Origin: Deltaproteobacteria bacterium
Lineage (GTDB): Bacteria; UBA10199; SBBF01
NCBI GenBank assembly: GCA_016183175.1
Contig: JACPFC010000016.1
Coordinates: 11,932 to 75,931 of the forward strand
Length of the DNA: 64,000 bases
Direction: 5' to 3'
Position 1 is the first letter of the stretch; each line of letters opens with the position of its first letter. Below are positions 9,635 to 22,790 of the stretch, piece by piece. A model generated the notes under the pieces. It was given only the letters and a program-made list of their open reading frames with translations. It made no database searches and was not told where the DNA came from. Position numbers and translations under genes: made by a program.

Positions 9635-9934
9635 ATGAAAGAAAAGGCTGTCTCCACGGTTTCTGCGGGAAAAGTTCCTCTGGGCTATCCCACCATCGAA
9701 AGGCTCATCGAGACCGAGGATTTTTCGAAAGTGAACCAGACAGTCTCGGCCTGTTATGATAAACTGGAAAAGATGCTGAAGGGAAAAGGAGGGGGCCTTT
9801 CCAAACAAAAGGGGATCCGGGCCGCGCTAAAAGCCTATGATTTGACCATTGATTTGTTGAGAGACCTGCTCAAGGTGAAGTATGATATCATTAAGAAAAA
9901 GCAGGTCGAGATGGGGGGAGGCAAAAATAAATAA
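9635..9934 (+). CDS. Small hypothetical protein (position analogous to YscE-type needle co-chaperone)
   Basis: 99-aa ORF with RBS-like aaaaggag before ATG; immediately precedes the needle-like gene; no sequence-based family call. Confidence 0.3.
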   Translation: MKEKAVSTVSAGKVPLGYPTIERLIETEDFSKVNQTVSACYDKLEKMLKGKGGGLSKQKGIRAALKAYDLTIDLLRDLLKVKYDIIKKKQVEMGGGKNK

Positions 9935-10070
9935 GAAAAAAAGCAACTCCGGAGGGGGTGGCGGACGATAACAGGGTTGAGAGGGGACACCGTCCCGAAG
10001 GACATGATGATCCCTTCAGGCAGGCCTCATAAGAGAGGCCCCGTTAAAAGTCAAAAGAGGAGGTTTTATT

Positions 10071-10586
10071 ATGACCAACGTAAACACAATCGAATCCAAC
10101 CCGGTTGACATCAGCGGCGTTAAAACCGCCACGGCCACGACGGCGGCTACCGGTAGCGATCCCCTCGGTTTTGCCAGCTACCTTTCGAGCCTCACGGGGC
10201 CGGTTGCCACAGCGGCCACTGCCGGCTACGGTTCCACCGAGAGCGCCGAAATCGTGGCGGCGGCCACCACCGCGGCCTCCGGGGCATCGTACGGGACATC
10301 CGGGCTTTACTCCGGGGCGTCCGGAGTCTATGGAAGTTCGCTGTCGGGCTTGAGCACTTCGTACGGCGGGTCGCTCTCGGCAACCACCACCGGGTCGTAC
10401 ACATCAGATGATATGCTCTCGATGGCGCAGGAGCAGTTGGCGTCCAGCCAGGCCTCCAGCATCGCCATGCTGATGGTTCAGGACGACATGAGCCAGCAGA
10501 ACCGGCTCTATACCACCGCCTCCAACATGATGAGCACGCGCGACAGCATGCTGGCCACGATTATTCGGAACGTGAAGAGCGCGTAA
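10071..10586 (+). CDS. Needle/filament-family (SctF/PrgI-like C-terminus) protein with extended Ser/Thr/Gly/Ala-rich N-terminal region
   Basis: C-terminus NRLYTTASNMMSTRDSMLATIIRNVKSA aligns with the PrgI/MxiH C-terminus NLYRNAQSNTVKVFKDIDAAIIQNFR; strong RBS aagaggagg. Confidence 0.45.
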   Translation: MTNVNTIESNPVDISGVKTATATTAATGSDPLGFASYLSSLTGPVATAATAGYGSTESAEIVAAATTAASGASYGTSGLYSGASGVYGSSLSGLSTSYGGSLSATTTGSYTSDDMLSMAQEQLASSQASSIAMLMVQDDMSQQNRLYTTASNMMSTRDSMLATIIRNVKSA

Positions 10587-10588
10587 TC

Positions 10589-10631
10589 GGTGATGGGTGA
10601 TGAGTAATGAGTAATGGGTGATGGGTGACTG
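10589..10631. repeat. Heptanucleotide tandem repeat (GGTGATG/AGTAATG x6) after the needle-like gene
   Basis: ggtgatg ggtgatg agtaatg agtaatg ggtgatg ggtgact; a second ACTCNNN heptad series follows at 10650-10690. Confidence 0.6.
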
Positions 10632-10660
10632 CGGAATGCAGATCACCCATACCCTTTTTC
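10622..10660 (+). terminator. Rho-independent terminator-like hairpin plus T-run
   Basis: GGGTGA-ctgcggaatgcaga-TCACCC followed by ataccctttttc. Confidence 0.45.
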
Positions 10661-10701
10661 ACGACAACTCATCACTCGTAACTCGCAACCCGTAACAGGA
10701 G

Positions 10702-11145
10702 GTGCAAATGATCGACGTTCCACGCGACGACATGGTGCTTCTGCTTGAGGCGGGGTATCTCTATCTCGCCATGGGGAAATACGCCGAGGCGCGGCAGGTC
10801 TTTGAAGGGGTATCCGTTTTGGCCCCCAAACATGAGGTGCCGCGGGTGGGGTTGGGCAATGTCCTGTTCGCCCAAAAAAAATTTCTTCCGGCCATAAGGG
10901 TTTTAAAGGATGCCCTTGAATTAAGGCCCGACAGCGCCTTTGCCCATGCCCATCTGGGGGAGGCCCTTCTTTTTTACGGAAAAAAAGACGAGGCGCTCAA
11001 AGAGCTGAAAAATGCCGCGGAAATCGAGCCGAAGGGAAAGGCGGGCGATTTTGCCCGGTCGCTGACCGAGCTCGTCAACATGGGGTACGATCCGGTCAAA
11101 CTCAAAAAAGAGTCGCCCAAAAAAGCATCGGGGAAAGGCGCATGA
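10702..11145 (+). CDS. TPR protein, YscG/PscG-like or class II chaperone-like
   Basis: 147 aa all-TPR (LYLAMGKYAEARQVFEGV...; VLFAQKKFLPAIRVLKDALEL...); position after the needle-like gene mirrors yscE-yscF-yscG. Confidence 0.4.
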   Translation: MQMIDVPRDDMVLLLEAGYLYLAMGKYAEARQVFEGVSVLAPKHEVPRVGLGNVLFAQKKFLPAIRVLKDALELRPDSAFAHAHLGEALLFYGKKDEALKELKNAAEIEPKGKAGDFARSLTELVNMGYDPVKLKKESPKKASGKGA

Positions 11146-20765: not shown

Positions 20766-21508
20766 ATTCAATGGTCACGTTGAACATCATTTCCATGCCT
20801 TTGCTGGCGCAAATATCTCCCGCGGTAGAGGCCCAGCCGGTGGCCAAGCCGATTGTCCTCATGATGGTGCTGGTGATCCTCTCGCTGGCGCCGTTTCTGT
20901 TGATGATGACCAGCTCGTTTGTGAAGATTTCGGTGGTGCTGGGGCTGGTCCGTTCGGCCCTGGGAACCCAGCAGATCCCTCCCAATCAAATTGTCACCGG
21001 TCTGGCGCTCATCCTTACCGTCTACATCATGATTCCCGTCGGCACCGATGTTTATCGCTCTGCCGAAGGGGTCATCCGCGGCGCCGATACCAACCAGCCC
21101 CTTCTTTCCACCGCCTCGGTCGATGTATTGAAGAAGGCGATGGATGTCGGCAAAGAACCTCTGCGGGCTTTTTTGATGAAACATTCTTCCCCCAAAGACC
21201 GGAATCTTTTCTTCGGCATGGCCAAGCAGTTGCGCGGCAAGCGGGAGGATGTAAAAATGGAGGAAAAGGATTTTATTGTCATCATCCCCGCCTTTATCAT
21301 CACGGAGTTGTCCGAGGCCTTTCAGATCGGCTTTATTCTCTTTCTTCCGTTTCTGGTGATCGACATGGTGGTGTCCAATATCCTTTTGGCGATGGGGATG
21401 TTCATGGTCTCGCCGGTGACGGTGTCTCTGCCGTTCAAACTGCTTTTGTTTGTTCTGGTGGATGGGTGGTATTTGATCACGAAGGGGCTGATTTTGGGGT
21501 ATGTTTAA
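20747..21508 (+). CDS. fliP: FliP/SctR export-gate protein
   Basis: PIVLMMVLVILSLAPFLLMMTSSFVKISVVLGLVRSALGTQQIPPNQ... is highly conserved FliP sequence; the true start may be an internal Met (signal peptide). Confidence 0.9.
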   Translation: MSFGIFDSMVTLNIISMPLLAQISPAVEAQPVAKPIVLMMVLVILSLAPFLLMMTSSFVKISVVLGLVRSALGTQQIPPNQIVTGLALILTVYIMIPVGTDVYRSAEGVIRGADTNQPLLSTASVDVLKKAMDVGKEPLRAFLMKHSSPKDRNLFFGMAKQLRGKREDVKMEEKDFIVIIPAFIITELSEAFQIGFILFLPFLVIDMVVSNILLAMGMFMVSPVTVSLPFKLLLFVLVDGWYLITKGLILGYV

Positions 21509-21520
21509 TGAAGCAAATCA

Positions 21521-21619
21521 TCCGGCTTTGCCGGTGATTTGCGCGGGGTTTGGGGCCATTTGAGGCCCGAAATCCATGATGCGAGTAGCCACAAACGGGC
21601 CGAAAGGGCCCCAAGTATT
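21521..21619. repeat. R3 ~100-bp conserved leader element, copy a (abuts the fliQ ATG)
   Basis: ccggctttgccggtg..gcggggtttggggccatttgaggcccgaaa.ccatgatgcgagtagccacaaacgggccgaaagggccccaagtattATG; near-identical copy at 42831-42929. Confidence 0.8.
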
Positions 21620-21886
21620 ATGGAATCCTACGCCATAGCCGTGGGCAAACAGGCCCTCTTTCTGGTTCTCATCCTTGCCGCGCCGCCGGTTTTGACCGCG
21701 ATGGTCGTCGGCCTTTTTGTCAGCCTCATTCAGGCCACCACCCAGATTCAGGAGCAGACGCTGACCTTTGTCCCCAAGATGGTCGGGGTGGTGATTGTGC
21801 TGGCCCTCTTCGGCCCGCTGGGGATGGCGGAGCTGGTGACCTTTACGAAGACGTTGCTTGAGACTTTTCCGGACTTTATTCGATAG
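21620..21886 (+). CDS. fliQ: FliQ/SctS export-gate protein
   Basis: 89 aa MESYAIAVGKQALFLVLILAAPPVLTAMVVGLFVSLIQATTQIQEQTLTFVPK... is canonical FliQ; the listed ORF starts upstream at 21539 inside repeat R3. Confidence 0.85.
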   Translation: MESYAIAVGKQALFLVLILAAPPVLTAMVVGLFVSLIQATTQIQEQTLTFVPKMVGVVIVLALFGPLGMAELVTFTKTLLETFPDFIR

Positions 21887-21904
21887 TCAAAAGTCGGAAG
21901 TCAA

Positions 21905-21965
21905 AAGTTAAAAAATCCCCCCACTCCCCCCTTTGACAAAGGGGGGGAAGGGGGGATTTGACCTT
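21905..21965. repeat. R2 nested G/C hairpin element, copy a (between fliQ and fliR)
   Basis: aaaaatcccccc ac tccccccTTTGacaaaGGGGGGGaa ggggggattt. Confidence 0.7.
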
Positions 21966-21974
21966 TGACCCCTT

Positions 21975-22790
21975 ATGACGCAATTCGCCGAACAGCTCGG
22001 AATCCGCATTGACCTCTATTCAGCGCTGATCATCGCCGGCCTTATTTTCACCCGCCTGTTCGTGATGTTCCAGCTGACCCCCTTTTTGGGAGGGCGCGCC
22101 ATTCCGGGGCGTGCCCGAATTGTCTTAAGTCTTACCCTGACCCTGTTTCTTTATCCGCTCCTGGTGCCGCCGCTGATCGACCAGCTCCCCGAAAACAAGG
22201 GGCTGATCATCGCCCTTTTTTTCAAGGAGATTTTTTTCGGCTTTTCGCTGGGGCTGGTGACCACCATGGTTTTCTACGCCCTCGAGGCGGCGGGGAGGGT
22301 GGTGGATCATCAGAGAGGAGGGGGCAACGCCGAAATTTTCCTGCCTCAACTGGGGCAGGTCTCGATTTTCGGCCTTTACAATTTCTGGCTCGCTGTGGCT
22401 TTTTTTCTGGCCATCGGCGGCCACCGCTTGTTTCTGAAGGCGGTTTTTTCGAGCTTCGAAACGGTTCCCCTTCTTGACTTTCCCGCCCTCGCCCCCGGTT
22501 TTTCCCCCTTTCTTGAACTGATTGTCCGACTCTCCGGCGATGTGCTGATCATCGCCATGCAGTTGGCCGCGCCGGTGATTATCGCCGTTTTGCTGGTCGA
22601 TCTGGTTTTGGGGATCGCCAACAAGATGGCCCCGCAGATCAATGTCTTTGAACTCGGCTTCGCGGTGAAAGGCTACATCGCGCCGGTGATGCTCTATGTC
22701 TCCGTGCTCATTTTGGTGACCCAGATGGAAAAGATCATGGAAGGGATGGTAAAGTCGGTCTACCAACTCTCGGCAATCTTTGGGCGGTAG
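21975..22790 (+). CDS. fliR: FliR/SctT export-gate protein
   Basis: Polytopic membrane protein; IIAGLIFTRLFVMFQLTPFLGG...; conserved position after fliQ. Confidence 0.8.
   Translation: MTQFAEQLGIRIDLYSALIIAGLIFTRLFVMFQLTPFLGGRAIPGRARIVLSLTLTLFLYPLLVPPLIDQLPENKGLIIALFFKEIFFGFSLGLVTTMVFYALEAAGRVVDHQRGGGNAEIFLPQLGQVSIFGLYNFWLAVAFFLAIGGHRLFLKAVFSSFETVPLLDFPALAPGFSPFLELIVRLSGDVLIIAMQLAAPVIIAVLLVDLVLGIANKMAPQINVFELGFAVKGYIAPVMLYVSVLILVTQMEKIMEGMVKSVYQLSAIFGR

Follow-up and report, generated by a model that had tools for sequence, protein, structure and literature searches.

What kind of machine is encoded by a locus in which genes otherwise typical of flagella are combined with those of an injectisome? 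The locus lies in a stretch of 64,000 nucleotides, here termed the window, from an uncultivated lineage labelled Deltaproteobacteria. The original prediction, that positions 9635-22790 carry one co-directional type III secretion cluster, was upheld by HMM searches (Pfam/NCBIfam). In order, the cluster encodes a small ORF, a needle-like protein, a TPR protein, an SctJ lipoprotein, a sigma-28-like factor, a 157-aa rod-like candidate, FliG, SctL/FliH, SctN/FliI, SctO, a FliK/SctP-like protein, FliM, FliN, FliO and SctR/S/T. The system is larger than first proposed, with the addition of an FHA-TM-PEGA protein, two acidic substrates with LcrH-like chaperones and a divergently transcribed secreted protein. 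The mixed flagellar and injectisome content was also confirmed, and it is conserved as a single syntenic unit in at least six divergent metagenomic relatives (L006, L007, L008, L009, L010 and L027), in which the complete locus has intact ORFs with 40-84% amino acid identity. At least 450 SctJ homologues are present in metagenomes. The gene identities, synteny, promoter motifs and tree position described below are established by the data; that a functional, non-motile type III secretion system (T3SS) has its main locus here and represents a distinct, deep-branching lineage in uncultivated bacteria labelled Deltaproteobacteria, we consider likely, with assembly and export inferred.

The first operon has an injectisome character. 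The product of 11142..12065 (+), predicted to be a YscJ/PrgK-type lipoprotein replacing FliF, is an SctJ inner-membrane ring lipoprotein, as judged by its scores of 126.7 bits with TIGR02544 versus 19.4 bits with FliF (PF01514, 79.5 bits), by a lipobox, LAVCIGC, and the motif LSGLDQKDANEI, and by PDB matches limited to MxiJ, PrgK and EscJ. It has TM segments at residues 6-24 and 241-259, the C-terminal one followed by a cytoplasmic tail of ~48 aa. In L006, L007, L010 and L027 the locus opens with a conserved gene whose counterpart here, 4656..6881 (+), encodes a 741-aa protein with Pfam FHA, Yop-YscD_cpl, periplasmic PEGA and TPR matches and a single TM segment (residues 233-251). The TIGR02500 SctD score is low, 13.6 bits, and by its SctD-like topology this protein is a candidate for the outer component of the inner-membrane ring. 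For SctD, SctI, SctP and YscE alike, topology, position or weak scores are the only grounds of assignment.

The 171-aa needle (SctF)-like protein (10071..10586, +) has a long Gly/Ser/Thr/Ala-rich N-terminal extension, and HMM searches returned no match for this ORF. Over its C-terminal 45 aa, the family profile matches the C-terminal helix of YscF, MxiH and Desulfovibrio vulgaris SctF from end to end (hhalign probability 93%, E 3e-7), and in the PDB profile search it scored best with 7y6c_F, a fragment of a needle (E 0.04), and with PrgI. Homology to SctF at the C-terminus is therefore likely, with export inferred, and the needle-like designation held in part. The adjacent gene (10702..11145, +), in the YscG position, encodes a TPR protein with TPR Pfam matches that is a putative needle chaperone; its NCBIfam scores (CdsG 41 bits, LcrH 41, SctY 34) are all below cutoff. 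The 99-aa helical protein encoded at 9635..9934 (+), conserved in 6 loci (mean column identity 59%), resembles neither YscE nor any PDB entry, and only position supports its predicted YscE label. Two further genes follow sctJ. The first, 12122..12535 (+), encodes a small membrane protein that is 150 aa long in relatives, has a TM segment at residues 36-54 and is conserved in L004-L010; alignment with L001 reveals that here an 85-bp deletion has stripped the gene of GCCGATAA, the RBS and the ATG. The second, 12548..12913 (+), encodes a conserved 121-aa protein of unknown role with homologues in L006, L007 and L010, for which no FlgM or other match was found.

In the second operon, the predicted FliH, FliI, FliO, FliP, FliQ and FliR were confirmed as SctL/FliH, SctN/FliI, FliO, SctR/FliP, SctS/FliQ and SctT/FliR. 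The SctL/FliH stator (15335..16042, +) matches PF02108 (77.6 bits) and NF004968, HrpE/YscL (115.5 bits). The SctN/FliI ATPase (16109..17440, +), originally called as an ORF at 16043-17440 for which 16109 is the probable true start, is matched almost equally by TIGR03497, FliI_clade2 (636 bits), and TIGR02546, SctN (626 bits). FliO (20364..20651, +) scores 45.2 bits with PF04347 (cutoff 22) and 52.5 bits with TIGR03500. For SctR/FliP (20747..21508, +) the SctR profiles, NF009438 (254 bits) and TIGR01102 (232 bits), outscore FliP (206 bits), whereas for SctS/FliQ (21620..21886, +; PF01313, 94 bits) the FliQ HMM is about equal to or slightly above SctS, and for SctT/FliR (21975..22790, +; PF01311, 179 bits) the FliR profile exceeds SctT. 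SctS/FliQ is 88 aa from an ATG internal to the ORF call of 21539-21886, the length also found in relatives. Three other predictions fared less well. The central stalk SctO/FliJ (17440..17943, +), predicted to be FliJ, scores as YscO-type (PF16789, 73.6 bits) far above FliJ (23 bits). FliE-like identity is unproven for the 157-aa protein in the SctI/FliE position (13887..14360, +), a candidate inner-rod protein conserved in 6 loci, whose C-terminal SPQQLLAMQ...QTQV aligns only weakly with SctF (E 9e-4), SctI (E 0.04) and FliE (E 0.13). The Gly-rich 312-aa protein in the FliK/SctP position (17951..18889, +) has a C-terminus conserved in relatives and a weak Flg_hook match (residues 246-310, E 0.048); this offers slender support for the predicted FliK-like identity, and a role as ruler or substrate-switch protein, based on position and this score, is only possible.

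The cytoplasmic ring proteins are flagellar, and the predicted FliG, FliM-like and FliN identities are borne out by Pfam/NCBIfam matches. The gene in the SctK/FliG position (14379..15338, +) encodes a full-length FliG homologue, with sequence, profile and predicted fold in agreement: FliG_C scores 43.8 bits (cutoff 23.3) with FliG_M also matched, PDB phmmer matches are to FliG, hhalign against FliG gives a probability of 94% over 244 columns, and the AF2 model (pLDDT 83) has FliG structures as all of its top 17 Foldseek matches. SctK was considered for this product and excluded, as hhalign against SctK gave nothing. The protein keeps an equivalent of EHPQ (ETPR); of the five torque-helix charges, the R281 equivalent alone is retained. 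With the charged stator-contact residues lost, we propose that this FliG is a static adaptor rather than a rotor. The FliM-like protein (18876..19841, +; PF02154 55 bits, TIGR01397 59 bits), for which BLAST matches are to flagellar FliM only, has the GGXG motif (LGGEG) and lacks the CheY-binding N-terminal peptide. A FliN-like protein with a SpoA domain (FliN/SpaO C-terminal domain) is encoded at 19851..20357 (+; PF01052, 71.6 bits).

A strongly derived flagellum had been left as an alternative in the original prediction and is judged unlikely. In its explicit form, a genuine flagellum with FlhA/B, rod, hook, filament and stators encoded elsewhere and the SctJ-like protein a shortened MS-ring, we regard it as very unlikely. 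It would account for the gene order FliG-H-I-J-K-M-N-O-P-Q-R, the presence of FliG, FliM, FliN and FliO, a sigma-54/sigma-28 cascade and the slightly higher scores of the FliQ and FliR HMMs. Against it are the SctJ architecture, scores and exclusively injectisome PDB matches, a YscO-type rather than FliJ-type stalk, an SctF-like protein partnered by a TPR protein, LcrH-type chaperones, an FHA-TM protein of SctD-like topology, the loss of FliG torque-helix charges, the lack of a CheY-binding peptide in FliM, and the absence of flg, fliC and mot genes from the 64 kb. The reading as an intermediate or hybrid is supported by the mixed content, synteny and a core that branches between the sampled clades. 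The last of these was determined by neighbour-joining of concatenated SctN+R+S+T (993 columns), with few taxa and no Myxococcales or Chlamydiales sequences. With 100% support for the injectisome clade, 99.5% for the flagellar clade and 100% for the family to which the locus belongs, this family attaches to the branch connecting the two clades, inside neither, at mean distances of 1.48 from injectisomes and 1.58 from flagella versus 2.00 between injectisomes and flagella. In a rooted ATPase tree, its position is unresolved (24% support).

Both operons have conserved promoter motifs. The predicted sigma-28-like factor (13080..13883, +) has TIGR02479, FliA_WhiG, as its best NCBIfam match, although the score of 136 bits is below the cutoff of 189.6; the identity is further supported because matching GCCGATAA-type promoters are present in the same locus. 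Sigma-54 promoter motifs are located 49 nt upstream of the sigma factor gene (TGGCAT-N5-ATGCA, 13031..13046, +; conserved in L006, L007, L008, L010 and L027) and 65 nt ahead of the gene for the first substrate (TGGCAT-N5-TTGCT, 23722..23737, +; conserved in L006, L009 and L010), and these are the only two matches in 64 kb (expected 0.12). A sigma-28-type motif, AAC-N18-CGATAA, precedes the needle-like gene (9945..9971, +) and, as AAC-N18-(GC)CGATAA, is present in 7/7 loci (the window, L004, L005, L006, L007, L010 and L027); the small membrane-protein gene is likewise preceded by it in L001, L006, L007, L009, L010 and L027. A further sigma-28-type motif, AACTTT-N-GCCGATAA, at 1448-1473 on the minus strand, is directly upstream of a gene for a 437-aa TPR protein (119..1432, -; many TPR Pfam matches), a possible regulon member. 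These conserved motifs imply that sigma-54 drives both the operon headed by the sigma-28-like gene, which would encode the basal machinery, and the substrate/chaperone genes, and that transcription of the needle/TPR/SctJ operon, together with that of the small membrane-protein gene, would then depend on the sigma-28-like factor; the evidence is motif-based only and the order is inferred. By adjacency alone, a sigma-54 activator (bEBP) with an N-terminal FHA domain (26902..28296, -; Sigma54_activat 234 bits, FHA, HTH_8) could act at both sigma-54 promoters, and a Ser/Thr protein kinase with PEGA domains (28308..30353, -; Pkinase 132 bits, PEGA 99.7 bits) could provide the input to the FHA domains.

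The two halves of the locus share a single conserved circuit running from sigma-54 to sigma-28, which argues against a recent recombinant chimera in which an injectisome operon (SctD-like to SctJ) was pasted beside a flagellar operon by horizontal gene transfer. Injectisome-like genes in the first operon and flagellum-specific genes in the second would fit such an origin. SctJ is, however, roughly equidistant (27-29% identity) from the SctJ of five injectisome families (Ysc, Desulfo, Rhizo, Hrp2 and Mxi-Spa), SctN, SctR, SctL and SctO of the second operon are also intermediate or injectisome-leaning, G+C is even along the whole locus, and the arrangement and cross-operon sigma-28 wiring persist in relatives as distant as 40% identity, making a chimera very unlikely.

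Downstream of the core are genes for two very acidic, putatively secreted substrates, each followed by one for an LcrH/SycD-like TPR chaperone. The first substrate (23787..24659, +; 290 aa) has 57 D+E versus 4 K+R and no TM segment, and its C-terminus (...SIIRNIG) is paralogous (hhalign 78%) to that of the second (25407..26210, +; 267 aa, 57 D+E versus 7 K+R), whose C-terminal helix gives a weak match to SctF (E 0.002). The chaperones (24677..25333, + and 26298..27065, +) score 88.2 bits (profile positions 3-134/136) and 75.2 bits, respectively, with TIGR02552 (cutoff 104.8). Upstream, the divergently transcribed gene at 1483..2388 (-) encodes a conserved 301-aa secreted protein with 17 homologues, 44% identical to the product of an L010 gene divergent from the SctD-like gene, and also adjacent in L027. 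Its AF2 model (pLDDT 88), with Foldseek matches to the CadC periplasmic domain, LpoB, FlgT and TolB-N, predicts a periplasmic scaffold-like fold.

HMM searches found no FlhA/SctV, FlhB/SctU, secretin, FliF, rod, hook, flagellin or MotAB within the 64-kb window, so that the predicted lack of flagellin, hook, rod, FlhA/FlhB and secretin genes held as far as the window extends. An outer-membrane conduit, secretin or L/P ring, was likewise not found there, and neither SctU/FlhB nor SctV/FlhA was found next to the locus in any of the relatives, or in the 10 kb that precede it in L027. SctU/FlhB and SctV/FlhA are indispensable for any T3SS, and their presence elsewhere in the genome is inferred. That the locus is a decaying, non-functional remnant would be consistent with these absences and with the 85-bp deletion by which, in this assembly, one small gene has lost its promoter and start. 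We regard this as very unlikely: in six or more relatives, at identities as low as ~40%, >20 intact ORFs occur in the same order and at the same length, the promoters are likewise conserved, and ATPases of the family share 83-84% identity.

In the functional machine that we envisage, with assembly, docking partners, regulatory order and export all inferred, the SctJ ring would form the inner-membrane base, probably surrounded by the FHA-TM-PEGA/TPR protein, with an export gate of SctR/S/T, assembled with FliO, an ATPase complex of SctL, SctN and SctO, and a cytoplasmic ring of the flagellar (FliG, FliM and FliN) rather than injectisome (SctK and SctQ) kind. The 157-aa rod-like protein, the SctF-like needle protein with its TPR partner, and the two acidic proteins, with one LcrH-type chaperone apiece, would be exported, and the sigma-54 promoters would probably be controlled by the neighbouring FHA-containing activator and Ser/Thr kinase. 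To our knowledge, FliG, separate FliM and FliN, FliO and a sigma-54 to sigma-28 circuit are not known outside flagella. Their combination with an injectisome SctJ, a needle-like protein and LcrH-type chaperones gives this system the appearance of a living intermediate.

The nearest known system is the T3SS* of Myxococcales, which is needleless and secretin-less. The locus might be a divergent secretin-less non-flagellar T3SS of this type, with FliG-, FliO- and needle-like genes having been overlooked in Myxococcales. No secretin, a basal position between flagella and injectisomes, LcrH-like chaperones, surroundings rich in FHA and Ser/Thr kinase genes and the Deltaproteobacteria label would all agree. 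We consider this unlikely, although no Myxococcus sequences were compared. Abby and Rocha, whose profile searches of the Myxococcales loci covered FliG, FliE and SctF, reported all three absent, whereas the FliG here passes the Pfam threshold. The T3SS* as described has a single SctQ and has SctRSTUV within the cluster; in contrast, this locus has separate FliM and FliN, does not contain SctU/V, and includes FliO.

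The T3SS locus extends from ~4656 to 27065, from an SctD-like gene to the second of two LcrH-like chaperone genes, and so reaches both upstream and downstream of the 9635-22790 span of the original prediction. Pfam and NCBIfam scans of the plus-strand ORFs from 9.6 to 22.8 kb upheld nearly all of the gene calls made in that prediction. The SctJ-type lipoprotein was confirmed: the 307-aa product of 11142..12065, identical to NCBI HYU99_01810, scores 126.7 bits with TIGR02544 versus 19.4 with FliF, has a lipobox and the LSGLDQKDANEI motif, has MxiJ, PrgK and EscJ as its sole PDB sequence matches and is the only YscJ_FliF-family protein in the window. 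FliF, the MS-ring protein, has ~550 aa and two TM segments. Also confirmed were FliG (14379..15338; FliG_C 43.8 bits, over the Pfam cutoff, plus FliG_M), FliH and FliI, as an SctL/FliH protein and an ATPase (FliI clade 2, 636 bits; SctN, 626 bits), FliM (55 bits), a FliN/SpoA protein and FliO (PF04347, 45.2 bits; cutoff 22). The FliM-like and FliN-like proteins are products of two separate genes, with no single-gene SctQ. The stalk protein predicted to be FliJ fits YscO (73.6 bits) better than FliJ (23), and for the predicted FliP, FliQ and FliR, the HMM scores favor SctR over FliP, are similar for FliQ and SctS, and favor FliR over SctT. SctN, SctR, SctS and SctT are all present, with scores approximately equal to those of their flagellar counterparts. 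For the gene predicted to encode a sigma-28-like factor (13080..13883), the top model is FliA/WhiG, at 136 bits and under the cutoff.

Several of the smaller assignments fared less well. A 157-aa ORF (13887..14360) predicted to be FliE-like matches FliE only with an E of 0.13; it is marginally nearer to SctF and SctI, and its identity could not be determined. The proposed FliK, a 312-aa ORF (17951..18889), has just a faint match to the FliK C-terminus, and the 99-aa ORF (9635..9934) in the YscE position has no detectable homology to YscE, leaving that identification unsupported. There was likewise no support for a 121-aa ORF (12548..12913) being a FlgM-like anti-sigma factor. The needle-like protein predicted from a 171-aa ORF (10071..10586) was upheld in part. 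It has no HMM match, Pfam included, but its top PDB matches are needle proteins, and a profile of its six-member family aligns end-to-end with the C-terminal helix of YscF, MxiH and Desulfovibrio vulgaris SctF (hhalign Prob 93%, E 3e-7). The similarity is confined to this helix; the N-terminal extension, ~110 aa, is of low complexity.

Upstream, the product of the gene at 4656-6881 combines an FHA domain with a single TM segment (residues 233-251) and PEGA/TPR sequence on the periplasmic side. The FHA-TM topology is that of SctD, but the SctD model gives just 13.6 bits and the periplasmic part is PEGA/TPR, so that its role as an SctD, inferred from sequence alone, remains a possibility. A secreted 301-aa protein, encoded divergently from this gene and conserved beside the locus in two relatives (L010 and L027), has a confident structural model (pLDDT 88) that resembles the CadC periplasmic domain, LpoB, FlgT and TolB-N. 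Downstream of SctT are genes for two very acidic proteins of 290 and 267 aa (23787..24659 and 25407..26210), with 57 D+E versus 4-7 K+R, no TM segment and paralogous C-termini. Each is followed by a TPR protein that scores highest with the LcrH/SycD translocator chaperone family (full-length matches of 88 and 75 bits, under the 105-bit cutoff). The window derives from a metagenome-assembled genome (MAG) labelled 'Deltaproteobacteria bacterium'. The G+C content is even across the locus (0.51-0.59; window ~0.54). MlaD and MlaE genes are also present in the window and, as the Mla role is in outer-membrane lipid asymmetry, a diderm envelope is inferred for the source organism.

The 319-aa FliG gene lies directly upstream of, and overlaps, the SctL gene, where flagellar operons have FliG and injectisome operons have SctK. 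Searched with phmmer against the PDB, the protein finds FliG proteins; its AlphaFold2 model (pLDDT 83) has FliG proteins as all of its top 17 Foldseek matches, with ~300 aligned columns for those of full length, and the profile of the family can be aligned with FliG of Salmonella and Pontibacillus over 244 columns that span the N- to the C-terminus (Prob 94%). The same profile has no similarity to five SctK proteins, and a sequence bridge from FliG to SctK was therefore rejected for want of signal. The EHPQ motif of FliG-M is here E(T/S)PR and the FliM-like protein, for which the only BLAST matches are flagellar FliM, keeps GGXG as LGGEG; the FliG-FliM contact is therefore plausibly retained, although this too is deduced from the sequences only. 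In Escherichia coli FliG, five charged residues (K264, R281, D288, D289 and R297) contact MotA. The equivalent of R281 alone is kept here (SQRDAALLKLRLE vs SQRAADILRDDLA), and the FliM-like protein has no N-terminal CheY-binding peptide. We infer that the FliG/FliM/FliN ring would be static and may serve as a sorting platform.

When all sizeable ORFs were scanned, no FlhA/SctV, FlhB/SctU, secretin, FliF, rod, hook, flagellin or MotAB was found in the 64 kb, and the predicted lack of flagellin, hook, rod, FlhA/FlhB and secretin genes thus holds across the whole window. FlgB, FlgC, FlgE, FlgG, FliE, FliC, FliL, MotA and MotB were not found, a result that applies to the window and not to the rest of the genome; even the remaining ~12 kb of the 76.6-kb source contig lay outside the search. 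SctU and SctV are absent from the window and from every related locus seen, with SctT directly preceding the substrate genes in every relative, and there is no secretin domain in the window ORFs or in the related loci. Searches of the relatives up to 10 kb beyond the locus revealed no SctU/SctV, secretin or flagellar genes. Rfam and tRNA scans of the window found nothing.

Relatives identified through SctJ and FliG-like homologues have the same genes in the same order. In six contigs (L006, L007, L008, L009, L010 and L027), the conserved arrangement runs from the SctD-like gene through the second substrate/chaperone pair, insofar as the contig ends allow, with amino acid identities from ~40% (substrates, FliG) up to 83-84% (ATPase). 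In two marine relatives (L004 and L005), the operon of 99-aa ORF, needle, TPR, SctJ and small membrane-protein genes occurs on its own. The SctJ search returned 450 homologues, mostly metagenomic proteins. Given this extent of conservation, the locus is likely a functional system rather than a remnant. The FliG-like family has just two matches in 185,579 species-representative genomes, both on short contigs (L007 and L008) of MAGs labelled Nitrospiraceae and Nitrospira; either these are contaminated bins or genome collections hold very few members of the family, in spite of its hundreds of metagenomic homologues. Near the SctD-like gene, an AAA_14/DUF4143 ATPase gene has differing insertion sites, at 2428-3600 (-) in the window and 3652-4893 (+) in L010, and the equivalent spot holds a pyruvate kinase gene in L027 and an 808-aa methyltransferase-like gene (7009-9435) in the window. 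The gap after the SctD-like gene seems to be an insertion hot spot.

Directly downstream of the locus, the opposite strand encodes an FHA-containing sigma-54 activator and a PEGA-containing Ser/Thr kinase. Just two matches to the sigma-54 pattern TGGCAY-N5-WTGCW are present in the 64 kb (0.12 expected; none of the shuffles gave 2). One lies 49 nt ahead of the sigma-28-like gene (13031) and the other 65 nt ahead of the first substrate gene (23722), and both sites are conserved in relatives. A sigma-28-type motif, AAC-N18-(GC)CGATAA, with a canonical -10 element, precedes the needle-like gene (9945) in 7/7 loci examined and the small membrane-protein gene in six contigs (L001, L006, L007, L009, L010 and L027); another copy is located ahead of a TPR gene at 119-1432. 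In the mechanism we propose, the kinase and FHA-activator would act with sigma-54 on the sigma-28-like gene, the basal-body operon and the substrates, and sigma-28 would then direct transcription of the needle/TPR/SctJ operon. The promoter motifs are documented; their use and the regulatory order are inferred. The flagellar hierarchy places the filament gene under sigma-28, and the proposed cascade from sigma-54 to sigma-28 parallels that hierarchy. It is likely, on the basis of these motifs, that the injectisome-like and flagellum-like halves of the locus are tied into one conserved circuit.

At 12100/12101, the window lacks 85 bp that L001 has at 2444-2528; this contig, from a related sample, is identical in all other respects. 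The absent stretch includes, for the small membrane-protein gene (12122..12535), the sigma-28-type -10 element (GCCGATAA), the RBS and the ATG, and the difference reflects either an assembly error or real variation in the population. Four intergenic copies of a palindromic, REP-like repeat, GTGCCCGCGTAAACACGGGCAC, bordered by GGCAC/GTGCC runs, are present in the window (expected 0), at 16059-16080, 25342-25363, 47591-47612 (-) and 53758-53779 (-), the first two within the T3SS locus, between SctL and SctN and ahead of the second substrate gene. These two copies result in spurious in-frame N-terminal extensions of the SctN and second-substrate ORFs; the repeated peptide upstream of both is this hairpin repeat rather than a promoter. 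Several toxin-antitoxin and defence genes lie dispersed across the window (22817-23227 (-), 32858-36238, 36243-36863 (-), 49830-50237 and 61664-62317). One, for a VapC/PIN toxin, separates SctT from the substrate genes; the others encode additional PIN proteins, a Phd antitoxin, AbiEii, and a MamI-type restriction enzyme together with an N6 methylase. A PrkA/DUF444/SpoVR operon, a conserved stress- or dormancy-associated triad, is located at 50466-55316.

By BLAST, the ATPase is 57.7% identical to a clostridial FliI and 56.9% to D. vulgaris SctN, and SctJ is equidistant (27-29% identity) from five injectisome SctJ proteins. Labelled reference clusters for injectisomes (Desulfovibrionales, Ysc, Rhizobium, Hrp2 and Mxi-Spa) and for flagella (Salmonella, Acetoanaerobium, Pontibacillus and Azospirillum) were taken from plasmid and chromid records. 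In a neighbor-joining (NJ) tree of concatenated SctN, SctR, SctS and SctT (993 columns, 200 bootstraps), the injectisomes (100%), the flagella (99.5%) and the family formed by this T3SS and its syntenic relatives (100%) are each recovered, and the family attaches to the branch linking injectisomes and flagella. Mean distances are 1.48 from family to injectisomes, 1.58 from family to flagella and 2.00 between injectisomes and flagella. This is a simple NJ tree with few taxa and no Myxococcus or chlamydial sequences, and the relation to the Myxococcales systems, which Abby and Rocha assigned to the same position between flagellum and injectisome, is left outside it. The trifurcation is unresolved in an AtpD-rooted ATPase tree. 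Among 1.8 billion proteins, the best of the 150 nearest ATPase cluster representatives is only 57% identical, and those named among the ten nearest are mostly annotated as flagellar FliI. Several of the nearest representatives are orphan pairs of FliH-like and FliI/SctN-like genes with no other T3SS genes within 10 kb (L023 9398-11305, L024 9306-11314 and L025 5978-8407), some from high-GC organisms, and high-GC neighbors in the ATPase tree proved to be such pairs. A sister ATPase lineage has a compact locus (L028 8020-13588) that lacks FliG and comprises genes for a sigma factor, SctJ (269 aa), a product of 138 aa, FliH fused to the ATPase (632 aa), an SctO-like product, FliM fused to FliN, and a PilZ protein. 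This is another non-canonical T3SS-like arrangement.

A bolder reading, which we consider rather more apt to be wrong than right, is that the family is a living descendant of a transitional stage from flagellum to injectisome, and that it may branch level with the Myxococcales systems or below them. Under that reading, the family would already have gained LcrH-chaperoned substrates, a base of SctJ/SctD type and a needle-type filament subunit served by a TPR chaperone, but would not yet have given up the FliG-FliM-FliN ring of flagella, FliO or the assembly hierarchy from sigma-54 to sigma-28. If so, the injectisome base and needle predate both the remodelling of the C-ring into an SctK/SctQ sorting platform and the recruitment of a secretin. 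The origin of injectisomes from the flagellum is a long-standing question for which the evidence so far comes mainly from one secretin-less Myxococcales group; a second, widespread lineage with FliG, FliM, FliN and FliO plus SctJ, SctD-like and SctF-like proteins would order the evolutionary steps. The family would be a natural system in which to study the docking of a FliG-based ring to an SctJ/SctD base, and how and when SctK replaced FliG, and would show that flagellar-style checkpoint control, with sigma-28 over the filament subunit, is possible in a non-flagellar (NF) T3SS. Tools that sort T3SSs into flagellar or non-flagellar likely mis-score such loci.

With the flagellum (fliE-fliR operons; Firmicutes-type FliI clade 2), the family shares the order FliG-FliH-FliI-FliJ-FliK-FliM-FliN-FliO-FliP-FliQ-FliR, FliO, EHPQ-like and GGXG motifs in FliG and FliM, and, by inference, the hierarchy from sigma-54 to sigma-28, with a GCCGATAA -10 element before a filament-type gene. 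It differs in having SctJ in place of FliF, a FliG with unconserved stator-contact charges, a FliM without the CheY-binding peptide and, within the window, no FlgB/C/E, flagellin, FliL or MotAB. With the Ysc and Desulfovibrionales injectisomes (Yersinia pYV; Nitratidesulfovibrio vulgaris plasmid), which provide the nearest SctR, SctL and SctT by BLAST, the gene order D-E-F-G-(I)-J-K-L, then N-O-P-Q-R-S-T, is collinear, and an SctJ lipoprotein, a YscO-type stalk, SctF with a TPR partner and LcrH chaperones are common to both. These injectisomes, however, have a secretin, encode SctU/V in the cluster, use SctK rather than FliG and a fused SctQ, lack FliO and possess a translocon with TM segments, and only the family's needle-like protein has the long low-complexity extension. 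No description of an NF-type T3SS with FliG was found in the full-text literature searched.

The closest described system is likely the Myxococcales NF-T3SS, a judgement made without comparison of Myxococcus sequences. Abby and Rocha (2012) defined a 'Myxo' NF-T3SS group that includes the T3SS* ('needleless') of Myxococcus xanthus, MXAN_2434-2464. This needle-less system, which works with the Kil Tad pilus in prey lysis, has no secretin and has SctD, J, I, Q, RSTUV, N and L and LcrH chaperones; Myxo systems are explicitly reported to be without FliG, FliE and SctF. Both loci are secretin-less, both have SctJ, SctL/N, SctR/S/T, LcrH-like chaperones and an FHA protein of SctD type (tentatively so in the family), both are read as between flagellum and injectisome and both occur in the former Deltaproteobacteria. 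The family meets the no-secretin criterion for membership in the Myxo type, on the evidence of the window and related loci only, and does not meet that for absence of SctF and FliG. Relative to the reported Myxo content, with a single SctQ and with SctU/SctV in the cluster, the family differs in having no SctU/V in the locus, separate FliM and FliN genes, a full-length FliG, FliO, an SctF-like protein and a sigma-28-like factor encoded within the locus.
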